Numbered from the stretch's first letter, positions 2,964 to 24,386 are shown. The stretch: 32,000 nucleotides of DNA from Microcystis aeruginosa NIES-843 (GCF_000010625.1 NC_010296.1:900001-932000), one strand, 5' to 3'. Notes: a model not told the origin generated them from the sequence alone. A program made the numbers and translations.

Positions 2964-4334
2964 CTAATCGTTAGGATTTCTTTGAAGATAGGATTTAAAC
3001 ACAGGATTAATAGGAAAATAGGACGAGGTTTCTGATGGTAATTTATCCAGTAAACAGCGTCTAATTAATGACTGAATAGTTGCCCAAAATTCAGAAGTAG
3101 ATAAGTCAAGACTAGCAGTTTTTGGAAACTTTTCTACCGCTTCAGTTTGATTAGCTAACCAGTGCATCACCTTTTTTTCTGCTGCGGATAAACGCTGTAA
3201 ATGACATTCGATCGAGTTTTCTATATCCCCTAAATAAATTTCATTGTTCATTTGTTCTAAAAATAAGGATACTTCTCCATCAAATAGTTCAATAATGGTT
3301 GAGGAGATGATATTTAACCAGTTAGGATGACCTTGATAAAGTTCGCTCAGTTCCGTCCATTTCTCCTCATTTTTTAAACCGTATTCTTTGAAGATTTCTT
3401 CAAATTCTGTTGTTAAACCTTGCAGGTATAAAGTTTTAATTTTATCGGATTTTAAGGTGACAAAATCTCTGGGAAGTTCCCAACTAATTAAAATCAAACA
3501 ACTTTGATGAGATGTGGTAGCAATTTGCTGAAAAAATTTATGATAGTCCTGACAGTCGGGTAAATATTTACCTGCTAATTCCCCCTGTTTAAAAATATTC
3601 TGCACATCATCAAGAATAATTAAACAACGATAGGAGCTTAGATAATCTATTATATCAGGTAAGGGGGTTGATAGAGATTGGTTGAAAAACTGTTTTAGAT
3701 CATCTTTGAGAGCGATTAATTGAGGAATATTTTCCAGACTGCGATAAATAATATAATCAAATTGTGAGGCAATTTCTGAAATTAATTTAAGGGTTAAAGC
3801 TGTTTTTCCAATTCCAGTTAACCCATAAATGGTAATTAATCGAGTTTTATTATCTAGCCATTCTTTTAAGGTTGATATTTCTAACTTACGTCCACAGTTA
3901 TACATTAATTCTGGGGCTTTTGTTAAGTCAATCATGGGATATTGATCGTCATTGCGTAAAAATTTTCTTGTTTTTTTTCCATTATTAATTGTTTGTAAAG
4001 ATTGATCGCAAATATGAATATTTCCTTGATTAACTTGTAAACAATGACCGAAATTAGAAGTTTGAGAAACCCGATATTTTCTTTCTAACTTGGATCGTAA
4101 ATTATCTTTATTAACATCTTCGTCTAATACCTTACCCAACTTTTTCCATAAGTTAGCAGCCTCTTTTTTAATATGAGATTCACTACAACCATTAAAAGAT
4201 TGAGCAATTTGCCAATATTTTTGACCTTGCCAAACCCCTGTCAAGATTGCTTCTTGTACTGGTGTCAGATGAGACTCCACTTTCTCAAACATTAAATCAT
4301 CAACATATTGCAAAACTTGGTCAATATTATTCAT
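2964..4334 (-). CDS. STAND-type P-loop NTPase (NB-ARC/NACHT-like) with an N-terminal HTH-like module and no C-terminal repeat sensor
   Basis: 456 aa. Walker A is IYGLTGIGKTAL, and Walker B is CLIILDDVQNIF about 60 aa downstream. The N-terminal ~90 aa (LTPVQEAILTGVWQGQKYWQIAQSF...HIKKEAANLWKKLGKVL...V.K.NLRSKLE) resembles the short module seen at N-termini of many cyanobacterial NACHT/WD40 proteins. Divergent from the vWA operon. Confidence 0.8.
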   Translation of the reverse strand: MNNIDQVLQYVDDLMFEKVESHLTPVQEAILTGVWQGQKYWQIAQSFNGCSESHIKKEAANLWKKLGKVLDEDVNKDNLRSKLERKYRVSQTSNFGHCLQVNQGNIHICDQSLQTINNGKKTRKFLRNDDQYPMIDLTKAPELMYNCGRKLEISTLKEWLDNKTRLITIYGLTGIGKTALTLKLISEIASQFDYIIYRSLENIPQLIALKDDLKQFFNQSLSTPLPDIIDYLSSYRCLIILDDVQNIFKQGELAGKYLPDCQDYHKFFQQIATTSHQSCLILISWELPRDFVTLKSDKIKTLYLQGLTTEFEEIFKEYGLKNEEKWTELSELYQGHPNWLNIISSTIIELFDGEVSLFLEQMNNEIYLGDIENSIECHLQRLSAAEKKVMHWLANQTEAVEKFPKTASLDLSTSEFWATIQSLIRRCLLDKLPSETSSYFPINPVFKSYLQRNPND

Positions 4335-4371
4335 TTCTGGTTAAAAAATTAGAGGGGTAATCAAATATATT

Positions 4372-4439
4372 ATACCAAACGGAACTAAGACTGTACCATA
4401 ACCTACCTATAAATTGTGTACCAAAGCCTACTTTGGTAC
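4372..4439. promoter_or_regulatory. Candidate operator cluster in the divergent STAND / vWA intergenic region
   Basis: Perfect palindrome GTACCAAAG-ccta-CTTTGGTAC at 4418-4439. Related half-sites are ATACCAAA (4372-4379) and GTACCATA (4393-4400). Confidence 0.35.
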
Positions 4440-4582
4440 TAAAATCAAACGCTACAATACTGAGATGTTAGGTAAATCAAGCTAATTAGTCCTATTTGCT
4501 TGCTAGATTGTCATCATAGCCCATTTTGCGGTGACATGATCATCTTTTCCCTTTCAAAAATCAATGAAGTAATCTTTAAGTT

Positions 4583-5383
4583 ATGTATCAAGAACTACTG
4601 AGTAGCGCCAAGCCTGGATTTATCCTGATTATGATTGATCAGTCAGCTTCAATGTCAGATAAATACGCTAATTCAAATAAAGCAGAGTTTGCCGCATTAG
4701 CCGTTAATCGAGTCATCGGAGAAATTATTACAGCTTGTTCATCGGGTAATGAGATTAAAGACAGATGTTTTGTGGCGGTGGTTGGCTATGGAGCAAGTAT
4801 TAGTATACTATTTCTAGACAAAGCCTCAGAGTTGGCTAAAAATCCCAATACAACAACCCTTAAGAGAAAAGTCTCTGATGGTGCAGGTGGGTTGGTTGAA
4901 GTGGATGAAGTAATGCGAGTGTTTGTGAAACCGACTGCAAGTAATGGAACACCAATGGCTGAAGCCTTTAAACAGGCTTATACTGGGGTAGAAAAATTTA
5001 TTTCTAATCATCCCGATAGTTTTCCACCCGTTGTTATTAATATAACCGATGGAGAACCTAATGATTCTAGTGCTGCTACTACTGAAGCGAAAAAACTAGC
5101 ACAACTTAAAACAAGTGACGGTAACGTGATTGTTTTGAATGCTCATATTTCTAACGCATCAGCAGGGAAAATAGAGTTACCTAGTGATAATGCTGGTTTT
5201 AGCAATAATAAATTTGCTAACTTTTTGTTTGATATTTCCAGTGTGCTTCCTGATCCTCTTGCTGAGAGTGCCAAAAATGCGGGTTTTAATGTTCAACCTA
5301 ATGCCAGAGGTTTTATCTTTAATGCTGATGCTGAAGCACTGATTAAACTTCTTCAATTTGGTTCTCAAGGAGCATTACGCTAA
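4583..5383 (+). CDS. von Willebrand factor type A (vWA) domain protein, TerY-like
   Basis: 266 aa. MIDAS DxSxS in ILIMIDQSASMSD, and a downstream metal-site motif in VVINITDGEPND. Rossmann-like alternation throughout. First gene of a three-gene operon. Confidence 0.85.
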   Translation: MYQELLSSAKPGFILIMIDQSASMSDKYANSNKAEFAALAVNRVIGEIITACSSGNEIKDRCFVAVVGYGASISILFLDKASELAKNPNTTTLKRKVSDGAGGLVEVDEVMRVFVKPTASNGTPMAEAFKQAYTGVEKFISNHPDSFPPVVINITDGEPNDSSAATTEAKKLAQLKTSDGNVIVLNAHISNASAGKIELPSDNAGFSNNKFANFLFDISSVLPDPLAESAKNAGFNVQPNARGFIFNADAEALIKLLQFGSQGALR

Positions 5384-5388
5384 AGTTA

Positions 5389-7026
5389 TTGTCATTAATT
5401 ATGGAATCTCATCATAAAGTTTCAGTCATCCGTCGGTTCAGTGATAGAACTCATAAAGAGATGGAAACCATTAGCGGTTGTCAAGATAATTTTAGCTATA
5501 ATGAAGCTAAGAATTGTTTTGCGATCGCCGATGGTGCAACTCAATCATTTTACTCAAGTATATGGTCAAAACTTCTTGTTGATTATTTTTGTGAAAATCC
5601 CCAGATTGATAAAAACAATTGGCAAGAATGGCTTGAACTAATTCAGCAAAAATGGTTAGAAGAAGTTAGAGCAGAATTAGAAAAAGCAAAAAGCGGTAAT
5701 AATTTTGCCTGGATTGAGATTTACAATGGTTTGGAACATTCTAAATCAGCAACATCTACCTTTATTGGGTTACAATTTATTGAAAATCAAGCAAAAATCT
5801 CAATTGTTGGCGATAGCTGTCTGTTTATTTTTCAGGGAAATCAATTAATTCAAACCTATTTATTGAAAAAATCAACGAATTTTAATGATAGACCTGGATA
5901 TTTTGGAAGTCGCTCTAAAAATAATGATGATTATGAGCCAGAGTTTTTAGACATCGAATTAAAATACAAACAACATTCAGATAAGCTTTATTTTGTACTA
6001 GCAACTGACGCTCTAGCTGAATATATTTTTAAATATACAGAACAGCAAAGAGATATTTTAACAACTTTACTTACCATTAATTCAGAACAGGAGTTTGAGA
6101 ATTTTGTAAAATCTGCTAGACATAATGGCACGATAAAAATGAAAAATGATGATGTCACTTTAATGATTTTAGAAGTCAGTGATGGTGAAATCGTCAGTTT
6201 GCCTACACAAACCAGAAAAGAAAATCAAAAAAATCCTCCTATCATTTTACCTTCAAGTAATGAAAATAAACAGCCTTTTAACGAAGATCAAAACAATTCT
6301 TCAAAAGTAGAAAAAGAACCTAAAGACAATACTCCTGCTGAAAATTTAGAAGTTACTTCTGGTTTTGCCAAAATAAGATCCAATCTACAAACATTATTAA
6401 AATTTCTGCCATCTTTACCCATGACGCACCGCAATTCGAGAGGAGTTTCTTCTTCAAGTCCTCAAGTGAGAGAAGACAAACCACCCGTAATTAAAGGAAT
6501 AGATGGAATCCGTAATCTTCTCCTTGTTTTTATTCCTTTAAATATATTCTTAACTATACTCTCCACTGCGACCATATTATATTTTATTTCTCAGACAGCT
6601 AACAAAATAAATAGTATAAAAACTGAACAATCAAGCAATTCAAATTCATCTAGTCAAGTCACTGAATATAAACCTAAATATATGAAGCTTGAAAAAGGAA
6701 ATAAAATCTACAAAGATCAAACTTTTCAAGAAATTATTATTCCTGCTTTATCTGACTCATCTCAGGTTTTAATTTTAGAAGAAGGAGACAAATGGATTAA
6801 ATTTCAGATTGATCTTTATGCTAATCAAGCAATCTTGAATCAATGTTCTACTTGTGCAGGGGATGAAATAGAAATAAAACCCAAGACAAATCTGAGAACT
6901 TTGGCTAGTGAATCAGAAAGGGATGTTTTTGGACAATTAAGCGAACCATCAAAGTTTAAAAAACTTGAATTTTATTCCCTTCCCGATTGGTCTAAATTTA
7001 CATTTGTGGGGTATGTAAAAAAATGA
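5389..7026 (+). CDS. PP2C-family protein phosphatase with low-complexity linker, single TM helix and ~145-aa C-terminal beta-rich domain
   Basis: 545-aa ORF from TTG 5389; a more likely ATG is at 5401. PP2C_2-like motifs are FAIADGATQSFYS, VGDSCLFIF and LATDALAEYIF. Hydrophobic segment NLLLVFIPLNIFLTILSTATILYFI lies at about nt 6514-6588. The stop overlaps the next gene's start (ATGA at 7023-7026). Confidence 0.8.
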   Translation: MSLIMESHHKVSVIRRFSDRTHKEMETISGCQDNFSYNEAKNCFAIADGATQSFYSSIWSKLLVDYFCENPQIDKNNWQEWLELIQQKWLEEVRAELEKAKSGNNFAWIEIYNGLEHSKSATSTFIGLQFIENQAKISIVGDSCLFIFQGNQLIQTYLLKKSTNFNDRPGYFGSRSKNNDDYEPEFLDIELKYKQHSDKLYFVLATDALAEYIFKYTEQQRDILTTLLTINSEQEFENFVKSARHNGTIKMKNDDVTLMILEVSDGEIVSLPTQTRKENQKNPPIILPSSNENKQPFNEDQNNSSKVEKEPKDNTPAENLEVTSGFAKIRSNLQTLLKFLPSLPMTHRNSRGVSSSSPQVREDKPPVIKGIDGIRNLLLVFIPLNIFLTILSTATILYFISQTANKINSIKTEQSSNSNSSSQVTEYKPKYMKLEKGNKIYKDQTFQEIIIPALSDSSQVLILEEGDKWIKFQIDLYANQAILNQCSTCAGDEIEIKPKTNLRTLASESERDVFGQLSEPSKFKKLEFYSLPDWSKFTFVGYVKK

Positions 7027-7121
7027 AATATCCGCTTATAACTGACTATGAAACAGTCGTAAAATACCCTGATAGATTTATATACGATGGTATTTTACAA
7101 CAAGGAAAGCCTGTTAAGCAA

Positions 7122-7303
7122 GGGAGCATCTCACTTACGCGATAAGTAATTATACTTAGCCTAAAAGCCACTCTTAATCGTGTCTTGGAACGAAATAGAG
7201 GCTTTTAAAGACTGCGTACATGGAGAATTAAAACAAGAATTACCCTCGAAAAGCCTATTTTTCCACTAAGTATTTATGCTCATTGCAAAGGTGAGATGCT
7301 CCC
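7122..7303. mobile_element. 182-bp MITE inserted in the kinase gene
   Basis: Terminal inverted repeats GGGAGCATCTCAC (7122-7134) and GTGAGATGCTCCC (7291-7303). Flanked by a perfect 9-bp TSD GTTAAGCAA (7113-7121 and 7304-7312). No coding capacity. Confidence 0.8.
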
Positions 7304-7723
7304 GTTAAGCAAAAGCAAAATCAGAACTTTTTACTGTCTCATAATGGCGGAAAAGCCGTTGTTTATGAAATTCAAACTAATCCTAAAAAATATGCCCTTA
7401 AATGTTGGATAGAAGATTTAGGGGATCTAAAAATTCGTTATAAGGCGATTGATGCCTATCTTAAAACAGTTCAACTTCCTTATTTTGTTGATTTTGCTTA
7501 CCAAGAACAAGGAATTTTAGTCAATGGACAAAGATTTCCCATTATTAGAATGGAATGGGTTGATGGTATTAGCTTTAAAGACTTTATATCTAATAATATT
7601 AATAACCCGACTTCTATCCGTAACTTTGCCGAAAAATTCTTAGAAATGGTTAAAATTTTCCATCAAAATAATATTTCTCATGGAGACTTACAACACGGTA
7701 ATATTATAGTGCGTAAAAATGGT

Positions 7724-9145
7724 GGCTCTTCGGGAATTGTTATGCAAATAATTAACTTAAAATAAAATTCGATGAGAGCGCCTACGCTCAAAAGTAGCTG
7801 AAATCCATATAGGGAAGGACTTAAGGCATCAACAGGTTAATACCAAAAGATAGACAATCGAGTTAAGATTTGATATAATAGCCAAAAACCAGAGTATTTT
7901 ACTTATGATACTTGACAAATTTTTGAACCTAGAAGGAACCTGTATTCAAGGCTATCGACACCTAGAAAATATCGGTATAGTTTGACCAGTCGAATCGAAA
8001 AATAAAAAAGCAACCTGTCCTCGTTGTGGCTTAGAAAGCGATAAACTCCACCAAAATCATCGACATTTAGTCAAAGATTTACCAATCTCAGGACAACCAG
8101 TGTACCTACAGGTTAATCGTCGTCAATTTAAGTGCGATAATTGTCGAAAACCCTTTAGCGAAGAGTTAGATTTTGTCGCCAAGAAACGAACCTATACGAA
8201 AAGACTAGCCGAGAATATACTCGAACAATTAAAAGAAGGAGATATTTTAAATGTTAGCCGAAGAAATAACGTAACGGAAGAAGAGATTCAAAGAATGGTA
8301 GAGGACATCGCCGAAGAAATTACAGAGCCAGATTTATCGAAATTAAAAAGACTAGGAATTGATGAAATCGCTCTAGTCAAAGGACAAAAAAATTACTGTG
8401 CGGTTTTAGTAAATTTAGATACGGGAAAACTAATAGCTATTCTAGAGAAGCGAACACAAGAAGAGTTGAGAGAAACGCTTACAGGCTGGGGAAAAGAGGT
8501 GTTAGAGCAAATTGAAGAAGTGAGCATAGACCTTTGGTTGCCCTATAAAAATTTGGTGAAAGAATTGATGCCATCGGCCGAGGTAGTCGCCGATAGATTC
8601 CATGTCATGAAACAAATTAATCAAGAGTTAGACGAACAGAGAAGAGCGGAAAAAAGAGCCGTAGAAGCGCAGAAAAATAAAAAACAGAAAGCAGAAAAAG
8701 AAGCAAAGCTAGAAGTTTTAAAGCGAAGTAAATATAGCCTGTTAAAAAATGAAGAAGATTTAACGGAACCCCAAAAAATTAAACTAGAAGCTATCAAAGA
8801 AAAATTCCCAAATTTGAAAAAGATGCAGGAATTAAAGGAAGAATTCAGAAAGATTTATGAAACCTCAGAGAATCCGACAGAGGGAATGCTATCCATCTCG
8901 GAATGGTTGGCAAAATCCTCCAGTGTTTTTACCAAGAGTTGTCAAACAATCCGAAACTGGTTTGGAGAAATCATTAGTTATTTTGAGCGAAGGACAACGA
9001 ATGGGGTGGTCGAGGGAATCAACAATAAACTTAAACTAATAAAACGGAGAGGCTATGGCTTGAGAAACTTTCGGAATTTTTGGGTTAGAAGTATGTTGTC
9101 TTGGCATCTTGTCTGTTGATTTAGCATAAAGGGTAACGAAGAGCC
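7724..9145 (+). mobile_element. ISL3-family insertion sequence (1422 bp) inserted in the kinase gene
   Basis: IRL is GGCTCTTCGGGAATTG at 7724; IRR is ...GGGTAACGAAGAGCC ending at 9145. 8-bp TSD AAAATGGT at 7716-7723 and 9146-9153. GG ends and an 8-bp TSD are typical of ISL3. Confidence 0.9.
7905..9119 (+). pseudogene. ISL3-family transposase with an in-frame TGA at codon 27
   Basis: ATG at 7905 is in frame with the 8100-9119 ORF. Zinc-finger-like CPRCG...CDNCRKPF N-terminus, and DDE region with ...IDEIALVKGQKNYCAVLV...ADRFHVMK... The stop TGA lies at 7983-7985. Confidence 0.8.
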
Positions 9146-9721
9146 AAAATGGTGATCTATGTTTAATTGACTATGATAGTTTATATGTTCCTCAATTAAG
9201 CAACGAAACCGACAATATTAAAGGACTCCCTGGTTATCAACATCCTAACAGAAATAAGTTATCTAAATTAAGTCCAAAAGCTGACTATTTCTCAGAAATG
9301 GTAATTTATTTATCATTGCTTGTTCTATCAGAAAATCCCAACTATTGGCAACAAATACAACCAGAGGAAAGACTACTATTTTCCGAAAAAGACCTAATTA
9401 AACCTAATTCATCCAAGATTTTTAAAGAACTTAAAAATCTTTCTCCTGAGATTGTGTATTTTACCCAAGAATTAGAGAAATTTTGTCAACAATCAAATAT
9501 TGAAAACCTACAACCTCTTGAAAATTTAGTCAACAATTACACAGGAGCTAAATGGAGTTTTGTGCCTCCTACTAACCCTATTCCAATCGTTACTTCACCT
9601 GTTCCTGTAGTTAATCCCGCATTTCTCACAAACTGAATTAAGAACCTAATTTGGAGGTTAAAAGTTGGTGTTTTTCAAAAATAAGAGAAACCCGCTTAGT
9701 TATCAAGGAATAATCTGAATA

Positions 9722-10755
9722 TAGCAATTCTTGGAGCTATGAGGTACAATAGAAAGTAAATAGACAAATAATAGAACTTACCAGCTTCCTATGAGACCCT
9801 ATTCCGTAGATTTTCGCCAAAAAATTATCGATGTCTGGAAGAAAGAAAAAATTTCCATTCGAGGACTAGCCCAGAGATTTGACGTGGCTAAAAGCTTTAT
9901 TCAGAAGTTATTGAAGCAACATAAAGAAACAGGAGATATCCGTCCTCGTCCGCAAGGGGGAAGTCCGCCAACCAAGTTAAATAGTGAACAACTGATAATT
10001 TTAATAGAAATCATCGAAGCTAACAATGATGCAACTCTCGAAGAATTATCGGACTTACTGTATGAAAAGACACAGGTGAAAGTCAGTAGAGCCACCCTGG
10101 GGCGGCTTACGCAAAAACTCAATTACAGTTTCAAAAAAAAACACTACACGCGGCGGAAAAAGAAAGTGACAGGGTACAGCAAAAAAGAGTGGAATACTGG
10201 TCAGAAGTTCGGGAAATTGAGGCATCAAAACTAATTTTCATCGATGAATCGGGGGTAAATTTAGCCCTTTTGAGACTCTATGCTAGAGCCTTAATTGGCC
10301 GAAGAGCTCGGGGAAGAAAACCACAAAAAAGAGGGAGAAATATTTCAATAATTAGTGCTATAAGCTGAGAAAAAGTTGTCGCATCAGTCAACATATACGG
10401 TGCAGTGGATGCGGTAACATTTGAAGGATTTATTCTAAAGGAAGTGCTGCCAAAAATTAAAGAAGGAGACTGTCTGATCATGGATAACGCCAAGATTCAT
10501 CTCGGAGAAATGGTCAGAGAAATAATCGAACAAGAAAAAGCTAGACTCATCTATTTACCTCCTTATTCTCCCGAATTCTCTCCTATTGAAAACTTTTGGT
10601 CAAAAGTGAAAGCGACGTTAAGAAAACTGAAGGCGAGAACTTACAAAGACTTAATAGAAGGGATTGAATTGGCTATGTTAGAAGTTACTCAAAAAGATAT
10701 TCGCAATTGGTTTACTCACTGTTGCTACTGTACCTCATAAGTCAGAGAATTGCTA
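9722..10755 (+). mobile_element. IS630-family element (1034 bp) nested in IS1380 copy A
   Basis: Imperfect ~26-bp IRs: TAGCAATTCTTGGAGCTATGAGGTAC / GTACCTCATAAGTCAGAGAATTGCTA. TA duplication at 9720-9721 and 10756-10757. The empty site is visible in copy B (about 22140-22150), with one substitution. Confidence 0.85.
9791..10740 (+). pseudogene. IS630-family transposase (frame change at an A9 run, plus an in-frame TGA)
   Basis: HTH N-terminus from 9791. Continuation requires a -1 shift at A9 (10133-10141). The downstream frame (LIFIDESGVN...DNAKIH...YLPPYSPEFSPIENFWSKVK) contains TGA at 10366-10368. Confidence 0.8.
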
Positions 10756-11098
10756 TAAACTAATCAAAAAATTCCTGAATTACTGGAAAAATTCCGTCAA
10801 TTAGGGAAAATGTTCACGACAAAGTTAGCTGAATTTATAAGCAGCCATTTTTAAGACTATTTAATGATCTTTGAAAACTCTTCAACTTATCCAGTTCCCG
10901 CTATCGCTTGAATTCTAGAGTAAGCTATCGCTAAAATATCTTGATAGGGACAAGAACTGGCAATTGCGATTAAAATTCTTCTGACACTAACAGTAATTCT
11001 AGCTCCTAATTTAAGGAAATTAAGGCGAATTGTTCCCACTGTCGCTTTGGCAAAAGAAGTTTTAGCCAAACAATTTTGACGAAAAGCTTGCATTAAAA

Positions 11099-13172
11099 CC
11101 CACATTCCGCACCCTAAGTGTCACAACGTCTCAAAAGAGGAAGGGGCGCGAGTCAAAATACTTATCTAGAGGAGTGAGTTGGCGGCAAGCTGCCGGCAAC
11201 TAAGCCGAAAATTTCAGAGTTCCCCCGGTCATTCTCAATAAACAGTGCTTGTTGAGAATGACTAGGCAATCAGACTTAACATCTAGGGGGAGATGTTCCA
11301 GTTGCTCGCTTTGTTTTGTCACCCCTTGAAGTCAATCCATCTGGTCAAGATAAGAGATAATATTCCTGGCAAGGTTTGGGAAAAAATCTCAAAATGTTGC
11401 GCCTCTCATCCGTTAAGTTGCTAATCTTTTGATTGTCTTGAATACGGACGAGATGAATCCCTTGAAAGCACTGAAATATCCAGCGTAACGTCGGTCGGTC
11501 AGTTAACTTACCCAACGGATTTTTCAGTCCCGTCTCCTGCTGTTTTAAACTTAAACGAAGTTGTCTTTGACCAATAGTATAAACCAGCAGGCACAAGCCC
11601 ATGAGCATGGCCATGACCTCGATTCTATGGGGAGATTTGAGAAAGACACTGTGGGCAAAAAAGCAGGGGTCTTTGAGAAAAGAAAATCCTCTTTCCGGAG
11701 CTTGTTGCCCTTTATATTTTTTGAGTATATCCTCACTGCTTAATCGTTGTTTCTCCAAATCGTTAGTTGCTAAAACGAATCGTCCTGCTCGTTTCTTTAG
11801 CCTCTCAATGGCGGTCAAATTCAACTCTAATTCGGCTTGAACTTGATAGCTTTGAGAGGGTAAATCGTCTTTTGATTTGAGTTTTGACCCCTGGGACTCA
11901 GGCGGAATGAGATTGACTTTAATCTCCGTTAACTGATGAGATTTTAAGGAGTCAGATAATCCTTTGGCTATCGCCAACGCCACCGCTCTATTCTCAAATT
12001 CTCTTCGGGATAGTTGCCGGATTTTTTCTTGGGCAGAATTCTTTTCCTGCTCGATTTTTTTCTCTAATTTTTTCAAGTCTGATTCTTGTCTAGCTTGACT
12101 TTCAACTAGCAACCATCTTTGTTCTATCCCCCCATAGTTAGAGATGGTTTCCCGCCAGGAATAACCCGGTATTTCTGAATCGGTTAACTCTTTTTCTGAG
12201 ATGCTATCAACCAACTCTTGAGCCTCTTTAATGCTTAATGGTACTCGAGACAACCAACGCATTTCTTTCATTAGTTTTAAATTCTCTTTGCTATAGAGGG
12301 CGCTATCGCCGACTATTAAACTGTCAAAGTCAACTTGTTTTTTAAATTCTCGGGCGATTTGACCAAAAACCGCTTTGTCCGCTTCATTTCCGTCCCCTAC
12401 TTTCAGGAATAAAGGTACATCTCCATCCCCACTTACGATTAAGTCAATCATAAATTGTTTTAAGTCAGGTCTTCGGTCGCGGGAGTATCCGTAGGTAATT
12501 TTTATTGGCTGTTGTCTGGTTTCAATTTCTTCTCCCACTGCTCCTGATTTCAGGATTTCTACTGTTGGGTATTCCTTGTTATATTCTCCTTCTACTGATA
12601 GAGAAGTCGAATCTAAATGGGAGTTCTCGGTTGCTACACCAAATTTTTTCACGGCCGCTAAACTAATCAGTAGGAAAATGACCGAAACATTAAGTTGATA
12701 AAGTTTGTCCATTACTCGACCAATTTTATCATCATTCAGGTGTTTTGGTTCGATGCCCTCTCCCAGCAGATGTTCGGTTGCTTTATCTTCAAAAAATTGA
12801 GGAAATAAATACAAGGCTCGGGAGACAAATCCCAATCCATTCAGGATAATTGCTTTCACGACTTGCCCAGCTGTGACAATTTCTCCTCGCTCAATTGAGA
12901 CTTGTTCGTTGATAATTTCAACGATTCCTATTTCATCGATAATTCCGGCTACTAATCCCAGATGGTCTAGATTTTTGACTTCAATTTCTGTTGATTGATT
13001 CATGGTCGAACAGTCCACTCGCCTCAGTTTTCCAACAATTCCTATTTTTTCATAATTAGGGGTCTCAAGACCCCCCTAGCGGCCACCGAGAAAACCTTCA
13101 CCAGCTAGGTATTTTTACTCAAGTCTCTGGAGGGGGACAGCTTATGTGACAGTTGAGGGTGCGGAATGTGGG
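11099..13172 (-). mobile_element. IS1634-family element (2074 bp) nested in the IS1380 copy A transposase gene
   Basis: IRs CCCACATTCCGCACCC (11099-) and GGGTGCGGAATGTGGG (-13172). 6-bp TSD TTAAAA at 11093-11098 and 13173-13178. The uninterrupted target is seen in copy B. Confidence 0.85.
11345..13018 (-). CDS. IS1634-family (IS4-related) DDE transposase, apparently intact
   Basis: 557 aa. The N-terminus LDHLGLVAGIIDEIGIVEIIN...VVKAIILNGLGFVSRALYLFPQFF is characteristic of IS1634-type transposases. Confidence 0.9.
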   Translation of the reverse strand: MDCSTMNQSTEIEVKNLDHLGLVAGIIDEIGIVEIINEQVSIERGEIVTAGQVVKAIILNGLGFVSRALYLFPQFFEDKATEHLLGEGIEPKHLNDDKIGRVMDKLYQLNVSVIFLLISLAAVKKFGVATENSHLDSTSLSVEGEYNKEYPTVEILKSGAVGEEIETRQQPIKITYGYSRDRRPDLKQFMIDLIVSGDGDVPLFLKVGDGNEADKAVFGQIAREFKKQVDFDSLIVGDSALYSKENLKLMKEMRWLSRVPLSIKEAQELVDSISEKELTDSEIPGYSWRETISNYGGIEQRWLLVESQARQESDLKKLEKKIEQEKNSAQEKIRQLSRREFENRAVALAIAKGLSDSLKSHQLTEIKVNLIPPESQGSKLKSKDDLPSQSYQVQAELELNLTAIERLKKRAGRFVLATNDLEKQRLSSEDILKKYKGQQAPERGFSFLKDPCFFAHSVFLKSPHRIEVMAMLMGLCLLVYTIGQRQLRLSLKQQETGLKNPLGKLTDRPTLRWIFQCFQGIHLVRIQDNQKISNLTDERRNILRFFPKPCQEYYLLS

Positions 13173-15265
13173 TTAAAACATAAGCCATTGATGACAACCA
13201 AAGTCTTAATTGATTACTCTCAAATGTCTGTGTCGAATTCCGGTCAGCAAATAAGTCTAATTGTTGCTCTTTAATTCGATTTGACCTCTCACCTCTGGGG
13301 CAATATTTTTCAGTGTAAAGTTTAGATGGGGGAATCTTTGATGCAGGTAAAGAAGTCACAACGTGGCGAATTTTTACGCCCTCACTACCAGGACAAACTT
13401 TTGTCACCACTCTTCTTGAACGGCTCCAGGATTTTTGGGTTTGATAACATAGGGAACGATACCAAGTCGATTCTGGTACCAATTTCGCCAATTCTCCTAA
13501 CTCTTCATCGGGAGAAAATAACGTCTCCATTAATTCAGTAACTGGCTGAAGTCTTTGCTCGTAATCTGCCTTAGCTTTCTCAATTACATCGGTCGCTCGT
13601 AATTTTAATTGACTATTCGTTGCCATTGCTAAAACATAATCAACTCCTGCTTGACTTTCGCAAAATTTCATGATATCTTCACGGGAATAGGCACTATCTC
13701 CTCGTACTAATATCTGCGTATCTGACCATTTTTCTCGAATTATACCGATTATTCGCTGCAATTCTTCTAATGCTCCCCCAGCAGTATCTACATGAGAAGA
13801 CCGGAGTTTAGCTACTAATAAATGATGCTCACAGAAAATATACAAAGGAGCATAACACACTCCTTTATAATAAGTATTGAAAAACGCTCCCTCTTGATTT
13901 CCATGCACTTGGTCATCGGTGACATCCATGTCTAAAATAATTGGTTTCGGTGGCTTTTTGTAGGATTCTAGAAAGATGTCCACAAAAGCTTTTTCAATTT
14001 CTTTGGGGTTAGGCTCGATTTTATGGTAACGACTGTTCTCTTGATTGATGACTGTTTCCGGACAATATTCTAGTCGATTAATTGTACTTTTTCCCGCTAA
14101 ATTTGCTTGGGCTGAGTCAATAAAATTTAGTTTTTTCAATGCTATTGCTAAAGCTGGAGCATGACGTAATTTATCATGATCATTGACATCCTCATATCCC
14201 AAAAATATCCCATAAACTCTTTGTGCGAGTAGTTCATGAACTGAATAATCTAGATATGATGAATTTCGATAATCTCGAAAACATTCGGCAAACCGAGCCG
14301 TTATTTTTAGCTTTTGGTCTAACTCTGCCATCAAAATAATTCCTGCATCTGAGGTGATTTTTCCTCCCTCAAAATTAGCGATTACTTGTCTTCCATTGAG
14401 GTTTCCAAAATTTAATTGATTGAGTCGAGACTGGTCTGAACTAGGAGTCATAAACTTGACATACTTTAAATAGTTTTAATGATTAAATTATAGCAAGCTT
14501 TTGACTTCATTCTCTACTTAAAATTGAGACTTTATCAACTAATTAACCTAAAAATACGCATTTTAAATTTGTTCTTTTTTCAAGGTCTAATTGATGATGA
14601 GCTTAAGTTGAATCCTAACAACACACTGTCGTTTTTGCTACAAGGCGATCACCCAGTCAAAACCCAGATTTTGTAAGGCTTCGGGGGTTGGTGATCGTAC
14701 TTTTTGTGAGAAATGCGGGGTTACTGGAGCGAAAAAATCCAACAACTGAAAAAAGACCTCAAAAAAATTACCGATGACCAAGAGGAAAACTATCGTCAGC
14801 GTCAGATTCAATGGATGGAAGCAACGCTAACGGCCGTGATCGTCAGCGAGGAACAGGGAGAGATCGACAAATTCCAGAAACACGGGTTAGATATTACCAG
14901 CCATCGCAGTGTGATCAAAAACGGCTTTCAACTGGCGGACGGTAAAAGGATCAGCCCAGAAAATGCCTTTAAACAAGCCGATCACCCCTTTCGGATCGCC
15001 ATCGTCTGCGCCATGTGGTTGACCGGTTTCGATGTTCCCTCCCTCTCCACCCTCTACCTCGATAAACCCCTGAAAGCTCATACGCTCATGCAAGTGATCG
15101 CTCGTGCTAACCGGGTTAACGAGGGCAAAACCAACGGTTTAATCGTGGATTACTGCGGAATCCTCAAAAATCTCCGTCAAGCTCTCGCCGATCTCGCCCA
15201 AATTTCCGATCAGGGACGTGGCGAAGACCATCTTAGTCTCGACCCCACGAAACCGCAAGAAAATT

Positions 15266-16212
15266 GGTAATGATTCGGTAGTAGTGGCGTAGCTCTCTTG
15301 CTTACCTGGTATGAATTGTGTAAAATATTTATTAATAAAAATAATTGGCTCGAATCAGTCTTTAAACCTCTAGCTTGATCATGACTTTTCTGATAAATAT
15401 CTTTTTCTGGCTCCTGTCTGGCTTACTGAAATATCAGTCTAGCACCGAACAAAGTACCCCCTTCACCTCCGTTCCCCTGTCCTAATTGTGGTTCTCACCA
15501 TACGATCAAGAATGGTTCTATTCATAATGGAAAACCCAAACGTCAAGGTAAAGAATGTGGTCGTCAGTTGGTGATCAATCCCACTAATAAAACCGTCTCT
15601 GACGAAACCAAACAATTAATTGATAAACTCTTGCTCGAACGAATTTCCTGACGAGGAATTGCTAGAGTAACAGGGGTAAGTTGGTCATGGTTACAAAATT
15701 ATGTCAACAATAAACTGGCGGCTGTCCCCCGTCAAATAAAGGTTTCGGACAAACCAAAAGGTAAATTGGTTAGAGAATGTGATGAAATGTGGTCTTTTGT
15801 TTTTTCTAAGACGATAAAGGTCTATATTTGGCGGTTAATTGATAAAAATGCAAGGGAAATTATTGGTTGCTATGCGCGGAGATAGGAGTCGTCAATCAGC
15901 CAAAAAACTTTGGGCTAGTTTACCAGGTGTTTACCGACAATGTGCAGTTGCTTACACAGACTTTTGGGAGTCATATAAGACAGTAATTCCCAGTAAACGT
16001 CATCGACCAGTCGGGAAAGAAACTGGTCAAACTAATCCTATTGAAAGATTAAATAATACCTTTCGACAAAGGATTTCTCGGTTGGTGAGAGAGAGTCTAT
16101 CTTTCTCTAAAAAAATGGAGAATCACGTTGGGGCTGTTTGGTATTTTATCCATGACTACAATGCACACCTGGCAAAGGATTAAGCCGCCATCACTACTAC
16201 AGAATCACCACC
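15266..16212 (+). mobile_element. IS1-family element (947 bp) in hsdR
   Basis: IRs GGTAATGATTCGGTAGTAGTG / CACTACTACAGAATCACCACC (18 of 21 match). 8-bp TSD AGAAAATT at 15258-15265 and 16213-16220. Confidence 0.8.
15478..16183 (+). pseudogene. IS1-family transposase, degraded (in-frame TGA and a frameshift)
   Basis: CPNCGSHHTIKNGSIHNGKPKRQ.KECGRQ...LLLERIS*RGIARVTGVS with TGA at about 15648. The frame changes near 15870-15885 into ...GDRSRQSAKKLWASLPGVYRQCAVAYTDFWESY...IERLNNTFRQRISRLVRESLSFSKK. Confidence 0.7.
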
Positions 16213-17027
16213 AGAAAATTTACTGGATGAATTGGCCCGATCGAGGCAGTTAAAGAATTTTTGGGGGAAAGTAACGCATCCCTAGACGCGCTCCTCGAAT
16301 ATAAAATACCTAGTTTTGCCTTCAATAAAGCTATTAACGACGCGAAGGAAGCGATCAATCGAAGTGATCAGGCCCGACAAAATTTTGGACTCCTCTCTCA
16401 AGAGGTCTTCCATCTTTTTAAGGCCTGTCTTAATCAGCCATCGGTTAATCACTACCGTCCGGCTCACGACACGATTAAACTGATCTATAAATGCATTCAA
16501 GGTGATCGGGAGAAAATAGACATCGCGGAAATTCTCTTGGAAATGCGATCGGTAATCGACGGGGCGATCGATGTAACCACCGAAGCGAGGGCCGATGATA
16601 CCCCACTGTACGACATCAGTAAAATCAACTTCGAGCGTCTGAAACAGGAATTCGCCAATAGCGATCGTAAGAATACCACCGTCCAAACTCTCAAAAACGC
16701 CATCGAAAACCGTCTCCGAACAATGCTCGAGCAGAATCTGCAACGGACGAACTTTCAAGAGCATTACGAGCAGATCATCGCTGATTATAATTTCGAGAAG
16801 GATCGGGTGGCGATCGAACAGACCTTCGAGGCCTTATTGGGACTTAAACGCCAAATAAAGATCAAATCGAGTATAATCGTTAAAGAGTAAGCACTTTACG
16901 TTGAAAGATCAGCGATGAAAGAGACAACCCCAGCCGCAATGCCCCCATGCTTTGACCGATGGTGTCGGCGGTTTGACAATTGCTTCAAAAACGAAGCGCA
17001 AAAAAACGGCTTCAGACAATATTTAGG

Positions 17028-17237
17028 GTCTGCTGAAAAAGTTTTTCCTAGGGGCAGGGTGTAGGGTGTGGGGTGTGGGGTGTGGGGTTTTACCGATTTT
17101 GAGGGGGTCAATTACCTAATTTTCAGGGAAAAAGTCCCTGAATTTACCCCTGATCACTCCCATATCTGGTACTTTTTGAGGGGAAAAAAGTCCAAAAGTC
17201 TTATCCAACAAGGTTTTTAGATTTATTCAGCCAGCCC
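17028..17237. mobile_element. About 210-bp MITE inside the IS701 transposase gene
   Basis: 8-bp TSD TATTTAGG at 17020-17027 and 17238-17245. Imperfect terminal IRs (G)GTCTGCTGAA / TTCAGCCAGCC(C). No coding capacity. Confidence 0.7.
17051..17097 (+). repeat. G-run / GGGGTGT heptamer repeat tract (potential G-quadruplex) inside the MITE
   Basis: GGGGCAGGGTGTAGGGTGTGGGGTGTGGGGTGTGGGG: six G3-4 runs separated by 2-3 nt. Confidence 0.6.
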
Positions 17238-18208
17238 TATTTAGGAGGATTATTAGGGGAAAGTGAGAGGAAAAACCTCACTCAAATGGCCAATAATGCC
17301 GTCGGAGTAGTTTATAACCGATTACATCACTTTTTGACCGAATCTCCTTGGTCAGACCGTCAGGTGAATGAATGTCGGTTGCAAGTGATGAACCAATGCC
17401 GCCAGACGCAAATCCCCCGAGGATTTTCCCTGATTGTCGATGACTCAGGACATCGAAAAAGTGGCAATCTGACCGCCGGAGTTGGCAGGCAGTACCTAGG
17501 AGAAATTGGCAAGACAGACAACGGAATAGTCGCCGTCACTACCCATCTCTACGACGGCAAAAAAAGTGTACCCCTAGACATTGAAATTTATCAACCGGCT
17601 AGTTCCTTAGCCGAGGGGAAAGAAGACAAAGAATTTAAGAAGAAACCGGAGATAGCGATAGATTTAATTGACCGGAGCTTAACCAGAGGCTATCGACCGA
17701 AAATCGTCTTAATAGATGCTGGTTATGGCAACAACACAAATTTTCTCAAAGCCCTGGAAGAAAGAAAGCTAAAATACTTAGGAGGATTGGCAAAAAATCG
17801 AAAAGTAATTATTGAAAAAGAAGGGGGTGTGGAAGAAACAATCCAGCTTGAGCAACTAGCAAAAAGCCTATCAGAAAAGGATTGGGAGAAAATCACCCTA
17901 AATCTAGATAAAGAAAAAACGGTTTGGGTAGCGGTATTCAGAGCGAAAATATCTCAACTAGAAGGAGAAAGGAACTTGGCGATCGTCATGAATGCAAGTT
18001 CAATGGAAAAAGCCACAGAGGTGGACTATTTCATCACCAATGTAGTTGAGGCAGATACAGTAACAGCGTCGTGGATAGTCAAGACTTACACCGAAAGAAA
18101 TTGGGTGGAAGTATTCTACCGAGAAGCCAAAGGATGGTTAGGGTTAAGGGAATACCAAGTCAGGGATAAACGAAGCTTACTTCGTCATTTTATCCTGGTG
18201 TTTTGTGC

Positions 18209-18628
18209 CTATACATTTATCCTGTGGCATAAGTTAACTGGGGGATTGCAAAGGCAGTGGGCGAATCGACCTTTAAACACTTTTGTGGAAGCCTTGGAAG
18301 CTTTTCGGACAGCGATGTCTTTCCGTTTCTTTGAGTGGCTGACCGAGAATCGGGATGTGTTTGCCGCTTACAAAGCCAGTTTAGGCTTTGTTTGGGCTTG
18401 AAATTTGTTTAAGTCCCACTATACATTTATCCTGTGGCATCAGTTAACTGGGGGATTGCAAAGGCAGTGGGCGAATCGACCTTTAAACACTTTTGTGGAA
18501 GCCTTGGAAGCTTTTCGGACAGCGATGTCTTTCCGTTTCTTTGAGTGGCTGACCGAGAATCGGGATGTCTTTGCCGCTTACAAAGCCAGTTTAGGCTTTG
18601 TTTGGGCTTGAAATTTGTTTAAGTCCCA
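18209..18628 (+). repeat. Tandem duplication (2 x 210 bp) of the IS701 3' end, including its terminal IR
   Basis: 18209-18418 and 18419-18628 differ at the 2 positions I spotted (CATAAG/CATCAG and GATGTG/GATGTC). Each unit ends in GTTTAAGTCCCA. Confidence 0.85.
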
Positions 18629-18736
18629 TTATTAGAATTTATTCAGGAACTCGATCAAGAGTCCCAACGGGCGGTTAGCGAGGGATTAGACGAGGAATCC
18701 CTCGCCCTGTTCGACCTTTTAACCAAAGAGAATCTA

Positions 18737-19820
18737 AGTACCTAGGCAAAATTAATTACATACTCGCCTCCAAAATTGTCCAGCACTTTTTTAACGTAAG
18801 CGAGGAGGCTCTTTCGGTCTTTATAGGCGCTAAATTCAATCCATTCATATTTTAAAAATCTCCATAATATTTCAATTAAATTTAAATGAGGTGAATAAGT
18901 GGGCAACCAAAATATTTTCAAGTTTTTCTTTTCCCATTCCTCAAGTTTCTCCATAAATGCCTCGCTGGTATGAATGGAAGCTTGGTCAATTATTATGACA
19001 GTTTTTTTCTGTATATTTTGGCAATATTTATCCAGAAAATTAATAACTATCTCGCTAGTAAACGTTCCGACCTGTGTCTCATAAAATAATTGATTATCTC
19101 GTTTCATTATTCCTAAAATATTTAGTCTTTTACCTTCAATTGGTGGTAACTTTATCGTGGTTTTTTCTTCTTGCCAAGCCTCAGGAATACAAGGCTTTGA
19201 ATCCCCTCCCATTTCATCCAAATATCCTATCTCAATCTCTCCTCTTTTTTCCTGTTTTTTTAGTTCTTCTAAAATAGGTAGTTTGACCTCAAGCTCCCAC
19301 TCATCAGGGGTTTTGGCGACCCCTCTTCTCACCCTTTTCCACCTCATGTTGATTTTTTTTATGAGTCTTTTTATCGTGTCTTTGCTTACGGTTAATTTCC
19401 CTTCTTCTACAATTTTTATCTGGATTTTTTTTAAGCTTTTCGGTTCTTCTTTTACCCAGTCAATAACTTGTTGACCTTGGGCTTCTGTCAATTTAGGTTT
19501 TCTCCCTCTTCCTCGACGATTATAAAAACCAATTAGTTTTCTATCTTCCCAGGCCGTCAACCAATTATAGATGGTCTTTCTCGTAACTCCAAATATTCCG
19601 CTCAATTCTTCTATCGTGGTTCCCTGAAAACTTAAGAGTATACATTTCGCTCGCTCTCTTACTTGATGATGTTTACTAGCTCGATAAATTCTCTCTAGCA
19701 TTTTCTGGCTCTCGGGGTTTAGGTCTCTAATCAATCTCATTGTATTTTCCTGCTGCTTCGTTTTTTTATGTATTATACTTCTTAATTTTTTATTTGGGTA
19801 ATTAATTTTGCATGACTACT
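18737..19820 (-). mobile_element. Second, unrelated IS630-family element (1084 bp) in hsdR
   Basis: IRs AGTAcctagGCAAAATTAATTAC / GTAATTAATTTTGCatgacTACT. TA duplication at 18735-18736 and 19821-19822. Excision restores ...KENLSPQDIEK... in frame. Confidence 0.85.
18742..19740 (-). CDS. IS630-family transposase, apparently intact
   Basis: 332 aa. HTH N-terminus (ELSGIFGVTRKTIYNWL) and DDE region (IIIDQASIHTS...WLPTYSPHLNLIEILWRFLKYEW). Confidence 0.9.
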   Translation of the reverse strand: MRLIRDLNPESQKMLERIYRASKHHQVRERAKCILLSFQGTTIEELSGIFGVTRKTIYNWLTAWEDRKLIGFYNRRGRGRKPKLTEAQGQQVIDWVKEEPKSLKKIQIKIVEEGKLTVSKDTIKRLIKKINMRWKRVRRGVAKTPDEWELEVKLPILEELKKQEKRGEIEIGYLDEMGGDSKPCIPEAWQEEKTTIKLPPIEGKRLNILGIMKRDNQLFYETQVGTFTSEIVINFLDKYCQNIQKKTVIIIDQASIHTSEAFMEKLEEWEKKNLKIFWLPTYSPHLNLIEILWRFLKYEWIEFSAYKDRKSLLAYVKKVLDNFGGEYVINFA

Positions 19821-20257
19821 TATCACCGCAAGACATTGAAAAAATTAAACAGATCGCCACGCAGCTTTTGAAAACCCTAAAACAAGAGAAACTAAAGATC
19901 GATCGTTGGCTAGATAAAGAATCCAGTCGGGCGGAGGTTAAAACTACTATTCACAACTTTTTATACAGCGATGATACTGGTTTACCCGTCGATCTCTACA
20001 CGGAAGAAGAAGTGGAAGAAAAAACGGAAGAAGTCTTCCGCCACATCCGGCGAGTTTATCCGAGTCTGCCTTCGCCTTATTACAGGTCGGCTGCCTAGAT
20101 TCTGGACTGTCCATATTTCGCTTTTCCGAAGTTGCTGATTTTAGCTCTAATAATCATCACCGTTCCTAAATGGTTGCTCCGATTTTTTGTAGTAAAGTTA
20201 TACTATTAAGGAAGCAAAGACGAAATTCTAAGTAGGTGGGTATTAAAAATTGTCAGA

Positions 20258-20310
20258 CACCCCCATGATCAAGGAGGATCCCCCCGCCTATCGGCACCCC
20301 CCTTATCAAG
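20258..20310. repeat. Left, degenerate part of the C-run/G-run palindromic array split by the IS4 insertion
   Basis: CACCCCCATGATCAAGGAGGATCCCCCCCGCCTATCGGCACCCCCCTTATCAAG. It ends in the 9-bp target CTTATCAAG. Confidence 0.6.
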
Positions 20311-21897: not shown

Positions 21898-21992
21898 CTT
21901 ATCAAGGGGGGCAGGGGGGATCAAAACCCCCCTTATCAAGGGGGGCAGGGGGGATCAAAACCCCCCTTATCAAGGGGGGCAGGGGGGATCAA
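21898..21992. repeat. 34-bp tandem repeat (about 2.8 units) of alternating C6/G6 palindromic arms
   Basis: The unit CCCCCCTTATCAAGGGGGGCAGGGGGGATCAAAA is repeated head to tail. C6-TTATCAA-G6 and G6-ATCAAAA-C6 can each fold as hairpins. Confidence 0.8.
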
Positions 21993-22040
21993 GGACAAAA
22001 TCTATCTTCAATTTAATTGAAACCACTTACTTAGGGTTAA

Positions 22041-24028: not shown

Positions 24029-24386
24029 TAATTGGGGTTTTACATCTAATAATTCTACTCCATCCCCATACCCTCCTCCCTCAAGTCAAGGATGGACTTT
24101 CTCCCCTAACGGAGTTCAAAAGCCATCTCAAACCAGTCCAAAAAATACAACATCTTCAGATCCCTGGAAAAAACTTGAACCCAATTCATCAAGTGCTTGG
24201 GATAAATTTGACACGGGTAAAACACCACCTCCAACAGATTGGGATAAACTCACTCAAGAACCTCCAAAAGAAGCACCAGTACCTATCCCAGATGAAAACA
24301 TTTGGGATAAATTTGATAATATTTGGAAGAAACTTACAACATCCGTATCATCTATTTGGAACAAAATTTTGAACTGGTTTAATTAG
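24029..24386 (+). pseudogene. 3' end of the triad kinase gene (W-rich C-terminal tail), displaced 14.4 kb by the IS1380-bounded unit
   Basis: Joining 9615 to 24033 (dropping one TAAT copy) gives ...SPVPVVN-WGFTSNNSTPSPYPPP... in frame for 117 codons up to the stop at 24384-24386. The ORF-track start at 23997 lies inside the IS end. Confidence 0.75.

Follow-up and report, generated by a model that had tools for sequence, protein, structure and literature searches.

Triads of genes for a von Willebrand factor A (vWA) protein, a PP2C phosphatase and a protein kinase were reportedly defined in 2012 by Anantharaman, Iyer and Aravind as the TerY-phosphorylation (TerY-P) triad. TerY-P versions with an OB-fold kinase are described, in the passage of PMC11090510 that cites Gao 2020, as stand-alone anti-phage systems. 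We analyzed a triad of this type, together with a divergently transcribed gene for a STAND (signal transduction ATPases that have numerous domains) NTPase, in a 32,000-nucleotide stretch of the genome of Microcystis aeruginosa NIES-843 (NC_010296.1:900001-932000), which we call the window and in which all positions below are counted. We propose, with moderate confidence, that the STAND protein is a MalT-like transcription factor without a sensor domain and that the TerY-P-like triad is one among the swappable cassettes under its control. As in TerY-P, a TerY-like vWA protein with a metal ion-dependent adhesion site (MIDAS), a PP2C phosphatase and a Ser/Thr kinase are encoded here in the same tight order. 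The TerY-P kinase carries an OB-fold (or Zn-ribbon) C-terminal half, whereas the kinase here has a tail of Trp repeats; furthermore, the phosphatase here has a transmembrane helix and a conserved extra domain, a divergent STAND regulator and a putative operator array are attached to the triad, and the kinase gene is disrupted. The triad is of a known kind, but its kinase tail and its phosphatase are unusual.

STAND regulators of the AfsR/SARP and GutR types consist of an N-terminal DNA-binding domain, an NB-ARC domain and tetratricopeptide repeats (TPR), and AfsR, a regulator of the STAND class, is phosphorylated by the Ser/Thr kinase AfsK. The protein encoded in the window likewise has a predicted DNA-binding domain at its N-terminus, followed by an NB-ARC ATPase, and the kinase control of AfsR is suggestive for those members of the family that are linked to a triad. 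AfsR has an OmpR-type winged helix and TPR, whereas the protein here has a helix-turn-helix (HTH) of the LuxR/σ4 type and no TPR. In MalT, the ATP-bound multimer binds repeated MalT boxes cooperatively and recruits RNA polymerase (PMC4381067). MalT and the protein here have in common a STAND nucleotide-binding oligomerization domain (NOD), a LuxR-type HTH and short repeated boxes suited to cooperative multimer binding. The order in MalT and the other large ATP-binding LuxR-type (LAL) regulators is NOD, sensor and HTH, with the HTH at the C-terminus, but here the HTH is N-terminal (residues 1-95), there is no arm and no SUPR/TPR sensor within only ~456 residues, the NOD is of the NB-ARC/AP-ATPase type, and the targets would be variable divergent cassettes instead of a fixed regulon.

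Two further groups of systems are relevant. In actinobacteria, genes for a kinase, a PP2C and a stand-alone vWA protein are linked to GAP1-N2 GTPase systems (Kaur et al. 2020, PMC7159879); as here, an NTPase switch goes together with such genes in the genome, but those systems are actinobacterial, use a GTPase and have no described divergent operator array, whereas the NTPase here is a STAND ATPase with an HTH. The Avs and bNACHT proteins also have a STAND NOD and a variable, island-like context. In contrast to them, the STAND protein here has no fused effector, no C-terminal sensor repeats and no match to a defence model, and while Avs and bNACHT evolve fast, it is highly conserved (mean column identity of 72% in a 16-sequence alignment of the family). 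In a survey of the σ factors of cyanobacteria, domains resembling σ region 4 and fused to NB-ARC were noted but not analyzed functionally (PMC11119718). Our literature search found no paper on PF26355/HTH_VMAP-M9, on the cassettes of the family or on its operator arrays, in a limited library that gives no proof of absence. From these comparisons, the regulator is predicted to be of a known kind, a STAND transcription factor, with a minimal, inverted architecture and swappable targets.

The STAND gene (2964-4334, minus strand; open reading frame (ORF) calling and Pfam) encodes 456 residues, which are laid out as an HTH at residues 1 to ~95 (4050-4334), a linker at residues ~90-148, and an NB-ARC/AP-ATPase-type NOD at residues ~149-456. 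The NB-ARC model of Pfam scored 27.3 bits against a cut-off of 23.5. The Walker A motif reads GLTGIGKT and the Walker B motif LIILDD; residues G176, K177, D242 and D243 and a G-H-P motif are conserved. Sequence matches in the PDB were PH0952 and the plant CNL proteins Sr35 and ZAR1. At the N-terminus, a GerE match covered residues 22-67 with an E-value of 4.4e-4, below the Pfam cut-off, and the precomputed annotation of this region is PF26355 HTH_VMAP-M9. An AlphaFold2 model of the N-terminal 95 residues reached a mean predicted local distance difference test score (pLDDT) of 88.4, and its best Foldseek matches were σE region 4, FixJ, DosR and NarL, several of them solved on DNA; every best match was either a σ-factor region 4 or a LuxR-type DNA-binding domain. 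The model thus shows a fold of the LuxR/σ4-type HTH class. The sub-threshold GerE match, PF26355 and the modeled fold support the first-pass annotation, made from the sequence of the window alone, in calling this N-terminus DNA-binding-like.

In the full-length AlphaFold2 model (pLDDT 63.7), residues ~90-148 of the linker were of low confidence, and Foldseek returned ZAR1, Sr35, Apaf-1, CED-4, ORC/Cdc6 and DnaA, which are generic NOD matches with low TM-scores. Pfam searches found neither a C-terminal repeat sensor (TPR, WD40 or leucine-rich repeats) nor a fused effector domain in the STAND protein; it ends at residue 456, right after the winged helix, and a length of ~456 residues is kept throughout the family. 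Its sole match in PADLOC was at the level of the P-loop (mad8, E-value 0.0036). These data suggest that the STAND protein resembles a DNA-binding regulator and not an Avs-type defence NTPase.

The STAND gene and the triad share a divergent control region of 248 bp (4335-4582). Among loci with unrelated partner genes, the ~140 bp proximal to the STAND gene were conserved and the part proximal to the partner was not. The conserved block consists of hexamers spaced one helical turn apart, as in the example [AGTAGG]ATTT[GGTACA]ATTC[AGTTGA]CAA[AGTAGG]ATTT[GGTAGG]ATAT[AGTAC], and across loci the array spans −35-like and −10-like elements (TTGACA, TATAAT). In the window, the putative operator array of phased hexamers occupies 4371-4440 on the strand of the STAND gene (minus), with AGTACC at 4435-4440 and 16-bp units of the form RGTAGGnTTTGGTAYA at 4417-4432, 4392-4407 and 4371-4386; its hexamers lie at −106, −98, −88, −73, −63, −52 and −42 from the STAND ATG. 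With up to one mismatch, GTAGGNTTTGGTAC occurred in the 32-kb window only at 4393-4406 and 4418-4431. Across 61 distinct upstream regions, hexamer cores were spaced by 10 bp 70 times, compared with 0.1 times in shuffled sequences, and further peaks of spacing were seen at 19-20, 29 and 39 bp. In the 200 bp that precede main-type STAND genes, GTAGGn5GTA had a frequency of 8.2 per kb, versus 0.015 per kb in other parts of the same loci, an enrichment of ~550-fold.

Candidate promoters flank or overlap this array. For the STAND promoter, we recognized by eye a candidate extended −10 box, TGGTATAAT, at 4369-4377 (minus strand), at a position conserved in the Dolichospermum loci, and the third operator unit overlaps it. 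On the triad side, just past the array, TACAAT at 4453-4458 (plus strand, also by eye) is a candidate −10 box of the triad operon; a motif, CAGTATTGTA on the STAND strand, is common to the triad loci of Microcystis, Dolichospermum and Richelia. The candidate triad −10 box is not accompanied by a good −35 element, and the promoter has the look of one that would depend on an activator.

The type of hexamer tracks the predicted recognition helix of the HTH across the STAND family. The helix SESH[IV]KKEAA goes with GTAGG, SYDH[IV]K with GTGGG or GTGGC, SKSHV[KR]N with GTACG, SEDHIKQVAR with GTGTG or GTGTT, and SEGHIRD with GTCGG. As an observation apart, some proteins (P0365 of 541 residues, P0372, P0392, P0427, P0429 and P0442) consist of two to five tandem HTH copies with no NOD; such proteins would suit arrays of direct repeats.

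The STAND family is large and well conserved (2047 matches at E ≤ 1e-5; 55-63% identity across cyanobacterial genera). We surveyed its surroundings by neighborhood look-ups and a metagenome scan of 80 loci, 70 of which were informative. The STAND gene nearly always faced a divergent gene, with a median gap of 231 bp. A triad was the partner in 10 of the 70 loci and another divergent gene in 45, and the remaining 15 had no divergent ORF within 450 bp. The divergent partners fell into more than 20 unrelated clusters, including glycine-zipper and transmembrane proteins, an Ntox44 toxin-domain protein, fusions of GUN4 with a glycine zipper, a set of two transmembrane proteins with an ABC ATPase-permease (ABC_tran), a C39 peptidase (Peptidase_C39) with a porin-like protein, small GTPases (MMR_HSR1), a DUF3825 protein and secreted repeat proteins. 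Because one STAND family stands beside such variable partners, it is not a subunit of TerY-P but a constant element next to a variable cassette. A role as dedicated fourth component of TerY-P is, in other words, not supported by these neighborhoods, which point to a cassette-independent regulator. We also considered an EAD-like adaptor domain common to the STAND proteins and their partners, and dropped the idea when phmmer and BLAST clustering of the partner proteins found none.

Comparisons between closely related loci suggest how partners are changed. Two Microcystis alleles at the same site, that of the window and that of the M. aeruginosa locus L022, share 97% DNA identity from about codon 128 of the STAND gene through the downstream toxin gene, whereas their HTH, linker, operator and partner cassette are unrelated. 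In this second allele (L161-L177 and L022), a GTGGG array stays beside the partner, a secreted repeat protein of 390-563 residues with a PEP-CTERM-like end, and PIN, toxin–antitoxin (TA)/antitoxin-like and DUF29 genes separate the array from the STAND gene by 0.8-2.7 kb. L022 had at one point been taken for a STAND locus with no partner; we rejected this because its upstream sequence contains a run of N, and sister contigs show the displaced partner and the array. Likewise, the Dolichospermum-type loci L168 and L019 have the STAND gene and the array in common down to about −120, beyond which one carries a triad, divergently transcribed from the STAND gene (L019), and the other a glycine-zipper gene of 82 residues. 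HTH, operator and cassette are thus exchanged as modules, and this modular exchange, together with the covariation of helix and hexamer, fits sequence-specific binding of the HTH to the array and a role at the partner promoter.

Two side observations concern the same neighborhoods. A secreted protein of ~300-327 residues lies beyond the variable cassette, whatever the cassette type, at many STAND loci of filamentous cyanobacteria (5100-6083 of L104, with homologues in L107, L108, L110, L112, L115, L116, L124, L125, L127, L132 and L145), and its recurrence seems to mark a syntenic hotspot. In L103 (10714-11801), a second gene for a GUN4 and glycine-zipper protein lies opposite a STAND fragment of 100 residues, which suggests that this one genome holds a second, decayed module of the same type.

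We also approached the linkage from the side of the triad. A vWA alignment was scanned over one genome per species, which gave 79 loci, and the ORFs of these loci were searched with the proteins of the window. The order vWA, PP2C, kinase was found in nearly all 79. Of the 11 nearest triads, 7 had a divergent STAND homologue on their upstream side, namely those of Microcystis, Dolichospermum, Floridaenema, Geminocystis, Laspinema and two uncultured cyanobacteria, and these STAND-positive triads span at least five named cyanobacterial genera. The gap of ~150-250 bp and the orientation recurred across genera with different flanking genes; in Dolichospermum UHCC 0684, for example, the same four-gene layout has wholly different neighbors (groESL, asnS). 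On these data, the head-to-head pairing of STAND and triad is conserved and not a matter of chance neighbors. The 4 nearest triads with no STAND homologue were from Pseudanabaenaceae, Richelia, Phormidesmis and one unclassified cyanobacterium; therefore, the triad can exist without STAND. Beside the 68 more distant triads, no STAND homologue was found (0/68). Consequently, of the four-component STAND and triad module put forward in the first-pass annotation, the conserved linkage held up (7 of 11 near loci) and the idea of a dedicated fourth component did not, given more than 20 other cassettes and 0 of 68 distant triads; the enrichment of STAND genes at triads that it had asked for was present in the nearest clade and absent from the more distant loci. 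Within the same survey, a Chthonomonadaceae genome had two complete vWA–PP2C–kinase triads in tandem (L051, 6246-13627).

The assignment of the three genes to a TerY-P-type triad is well supported by profile matches. The vWA gene (4583-5383, plus strand) encodes a protein of 266 residues that matched PADLOC TerY over its full length (E-value 1.6e-59); the phosphatase matched the PADLOC PP2C model (4.2e-35), and the kinase, once rebuilt as described below, matched STK_OB (2.4e-64) and Pfam Pkinase (52 bits, above the cut-off; E-value 6.9e-14). The vWA protein scored slightly below the cut-off of Pfam VWA, and the phosphatase fell just short of PP2C_2 (23.7 bits, cut-off 24). Between them, PADLOC and Pfam backed every one of the vWA, PP2C, kinase and NB-ARC calls, and the TerY-P identity proposed earlier stands on strong PADLOC matches to all three models and on the recurring gene order. 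The MIDAS of the vWA protein (DQSASMS … T123 … D156), previously described as intact, is so: D19, S21, S23, T123 and D156 were invariant columns in an alignment of 20 diverse homologues, out of 1078 found at E ≤ 1e-5.

The phosphatase gene (5401-7026, plus strand) encodes 541 residues from the ATG at 5401, or 545 from an alternative TTG at 5389. Alignment of eight clade members made the PP2C motifs ADG, GDS, TDA and DDVT visible. The PP2C domain (residues ~17-264) is followed by a low-complexity linker, a single transmembrane helix (residues ~374-392, window ~6520-6576; hydropathy and the same alignment) and a conserved C-terminal domain of ~130 residues (window ~6634-7023), for which a Pfam search gave no match. 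The earlier description of a membrane-anchored phosphatase with an extra C-terminal domain was thus accurate. Among the 79 triad loci, this C-terminal extension was confined to the closest cyanobacterial clade, and a homology search with the phosphatase returned solely Microcystis sequences, at 89% identity or more. In that clade the triad is predicted to be membrane-associated, through the transmembrane helix of the phosphatase. As a side observation, the segments IYKD…V.ILEEGD.WIKF and NLR…FG.L…S.FK.LE…W.KF.F.GYIKK are conserved in the C-terminal domain and, by eye, resemble bacterial SH3 modules, a likeness that no profile match backs.

The kinase aligned to positions 1 to ~295 of the 562 positions of the STK_OB profile. 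Intact homologues of 444 and 436 residues likewise matched the first ~295 positions only, and distant triad kinases with TPR or other tails gave the same partial match. Therefore, by comparison with the STK_OB profile, the OB-fold C-terminal half was found neither in this kinase nor in its intact homologues. In its place the tail carries repeats of the form W[DSGN]K[FL][DG] and ends in a helix, IWDKFDNIWKKLTTSVSSIWNKILNWFN, which is rich in Trp and amphipathic-looking, and this tail is conserved in eight clade members. The Trp-repeat tail had been predicted by the first-pass annotation, which confined the locus to 2964-9615; the tail is present, and lies beyond that range at 24033-24386.

We propose the following mechanism. 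The NOD of the STAND protein would multimerize in its ATP-bound form, and the multimer would set several HTH domains on the phased hexamers (4371-4440) of the 248-bp region. The bound protein may control, and most likely would activate, the promoter of the divergent operon, and may also act on its own promoter, whose candidate −10 box the array overlaps. The triad would be one interchangeable cassette under this STAND switch in cyanobacteria. DNA binding by the STAND protein, the direction of regulation, the activating signal and any anti-phage role are points that we infer from sequence and did not observe. A broader and more tentative idea, which we consider possible but rather doubtful, is that the sensor-less HTH–NB-ARC STAND family, widespread in cyanobacteria, would serve as a shared 'ignition switch' for the transcription of conflict cassettes (pore-forming glycine-zipper proteins, Ntox44 toxins, GUN4 fusions, export sets and TerY-P triads) that are interchangeable and are swapped modularly at fixed chromosomal hotspots together with the HTH and its array, with the triads of this clade held under STAND control as effectors or signal processors.

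Several points weigh against control of swappable cassettes by a sensor-less STAND regulator. The Foldseek E-values of the HTH domain were 0.26-1 and not significant by themselves, as expected of a domain of ~70 residues, and the model of the full-length protein was poor (pLDDT 63.7). The family has no recognizable sensor domain for an activating signal. The upstream regions are homologous, and the counts of phasing and enrichment are not independent observations; the covariation of helix and hexamer rests on about five lineages. A consensus scan found no complete σ70 promoter (a −35/−10 pair) in the gap, and the promoters were therefore assigned by eye. Furthermore, 4 of the 11 nearest triads have neither STAND nor array, and some partners, such as the secreted repeat proteins, are unlike toxins or defence effectors.

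Of the other explanations, an AfsK/AfsR-style circuit is the one that would sit most easily beside a transcriptional role, as it is compatible with it for triad-linked members. Here the kinase and PP2C would set the phosphorylation of the STAND protein, and the phosphorylated form would switch on genes including the triad. An HTH and NB-ARC protein does adjoin a Ser/Thr kinase and a PP2C, the long low-confidence linker (residues 90-148) between HTH and NOD could carry phosphosites, and AfsR is itself a STAND-class regulator phosphorylated by AfsK. However, most family members have no adjacent kinase or phosphatase, so phosphorylation is not a general input, and in the window the kinase is broken while the STAND gene is intact; we regard this circuit as unlikely. 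We find it more improbable still that STAND is a dedicated fourth subunit of an anti-phage system derived from TerY-P, serving as a sensor or effector platform through protein contacts or phosphorylation. The head-to-head linkage conserved across several genera is what such a subunit would lead one to expect, and there is precedent in the actinobacterial GAP1-N2 GTPase systems with kinase–PP2C–vWA genes (PMC7159879) and in the TerY-P-like triads with an OB-fold kinase that PMC11090510, where it cites Gao 2020, gives as stand-alone anti-phage systems. Yet the same STAND family stands beside more than 20 unrelated cassettes, Microcystis alleles that carry a triad and those that do not share 97% identity in the NOD, none of the 68 more distant triads carries STAND, and the protein has neither an effector nor a sensor domain nor a match to a PADLOC defence model.

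Very little weight can be given to the notion that the two are independent neighbors, in which case STAND would have its own defence or regulatory role and have no more in common with the triad than a variable island. The many TA modules, Uma2 genes and insertion sequence (IS) elements of the region, and the 4 of 11 nearest triads that have no STAND, would agree with this; against it, orientation and a gap of ~150-250 bp recur across genera with different flanks, an operator array lies between STAND and triad, and exchange involves HTH, operator and partner together. In a role outside transcription, STAND would bind the hexamers for an integron-like exchange or recombination of cassettes or for a DNA transaction like those of ORC/Cdc6 and DnaA. 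Cassette junctions map to the edge of the array (−110 to −120), the NOD fold also matches ORC/Cdc6 and DnaA, and cassettes vary strongly at syntenic sites, which makes the locus a hotspot. But no recombinase was conserved beside the family in the neighborhoods examined, the array overlaps promoter-like TTGACA and TATAAT elements, and an HTH of the LuxR type is a typical module of transcription factors, so that we hold this role to be highly improbable. Transcriptional control of variable cassettes by STAND remains the explanation that we prefer.

In the window itself, the STAND, vWA and PP2C genes remain intact, whereas the kinase gene is in four pieces, so that not all three genes of the triad are intact. 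It starts with the ATG at 7023, which overlaps the PP2C stop (ATGA; ORF reading). Its fragments, all on the plus strand, encode residues 1-33 (7023-7121), residues 34-170 with the catalytic loop HGDLQHGN (7313-7723), residues 171-324 with a DYD motif equivalent to DFG (9154-9615), and the Trp-repeat tail, residues 325-442, with the stop codon (24033-24386; found by tblastn with the W13-11 kinase). Joining these four segments gave a clean ORF of 442 residues, which was 98% identical to the intact 444-residue kinase of Microcystis W13-11. The kinase had been annotated as a single co-oriented gene; its start and overlap were right, but there are three insertions in place of one ORF, and the gene extends to 24386. 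Because the kinase is disrupted, the triad is most probably non-functional in this strain. Intact kinases of 437-443 residues were encoded on many contigs of bloom metagenomes, and thus intact and decayed kinase alleles co-exist in Microcystis. The module here is a pseudogene-bearing relic, which a domain-based defence finder would miss or miscall.

The three insertions are of different kinds. The first is a miniature inverted-repeat transposable element (MITE) of 182 bp (7122-7303); its terminal inverted repeats are 13 bp long, GGGAGCATCTCAC, and it is flanked by a target duplication of 9 bp, GTTAAGCAA, at 7113-7121 and 7304-7312. The second is an IS of the ISL3 family (1422 bp, 7724-9145, plus strand; NCBIfam transpos_ISL3, 6.4e-93) with inverted repeats GGCTCTTCG and an 8-bp target duplication, AAAATGGT. 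In its transposase frame (7905-9119), a TGA at 7983 separates the N-terminal part from a main ORF of 339 residues in the same frame, which would mean either a dead copy or recoding. The third is a 14.4-kb block (9616-24028), delimited by self-BLAST and terminal repeats and bounded by two IS1380 copies in direct orientation, with a 4-bp duplication, TAAT, flanking the whole block. Copy A (9616-14719) is itself interrupted by IS630 (9719-10755) and IS1634 (11100-13172), and copy B is at 22036-24028. Between the copies lie hsdR remnants, identified by a T1R_D3-like match, and IS701, IS630 and IS4 elements (NCBIfam transposase names). Directly downstream of the IS701 transposase gene we noted a 214-bp tandem duplication (18209-18422 and 18419-18632, 98.6% identical). 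M. viridis NIES-102 (AP019314.1), which has the same locus with an identical STAND protein, carries the same ISL3 and IS1380 insertions; the MITE is absent from it and from strain W13-11.

The gene set lies in the window between psbA and the pile of IS elements. Upstream of the STAND gene are a Uma2 gene (1755-2324) and an antitoxin and RelE/YafQ toxin pair (2392-2891), both on the plus strand and identified by ORF calling and family searches. Our ORF calls reproduced the coordinates, gene order, head-to-head STAND gene, 248-bp gap and ATGA overlap of the first-pass annotation. The defence-type neighborhood that it described was found in part: Uma2 and the RelE/YafQ TA pair are there, and the hsdR remnant is present but inside the inserted block, and therefore not an original neighbor of the locus. 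The supposed Rpn-like nuclease (ORF 24890-25816, minus strand) had no significant match in Pfam or NCBIfam, its sole matches being low-complexity ones to FliH through a QQGL repeat. Separately, two psbA genes with flanks stand as direct repeats (468-1732 and 25903-27159; identity of 98.7% across 1265 bp) on either side of the entire variable region, module and IS pile together. If they recombined, the ~24-kb island could be lost or inverted.

For TerY-P, a conserved dedicated regulator whose operator can be read opens a direct way for experiments both on the trigger of STAND and on the action of the triad after its expression. For the biology of STAND proteins, a minimal protein of NOD and DNA-binding domain with no sensor repeats, if true, raises the question of how the switch is triggered. 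With a variable cassette beside a regulator that stays constant, the site stands out as a hotspot for the swapping of toxin, membrane-protein and signaling cassettes, and a search along these lines could yield new effectors of Microcystis and Dolichospermum, which form blooms. If the ignition-switch idea is true, it would amount to immune gating at the level of transcription, which is undescribed for prokaryotic STAND proteins.

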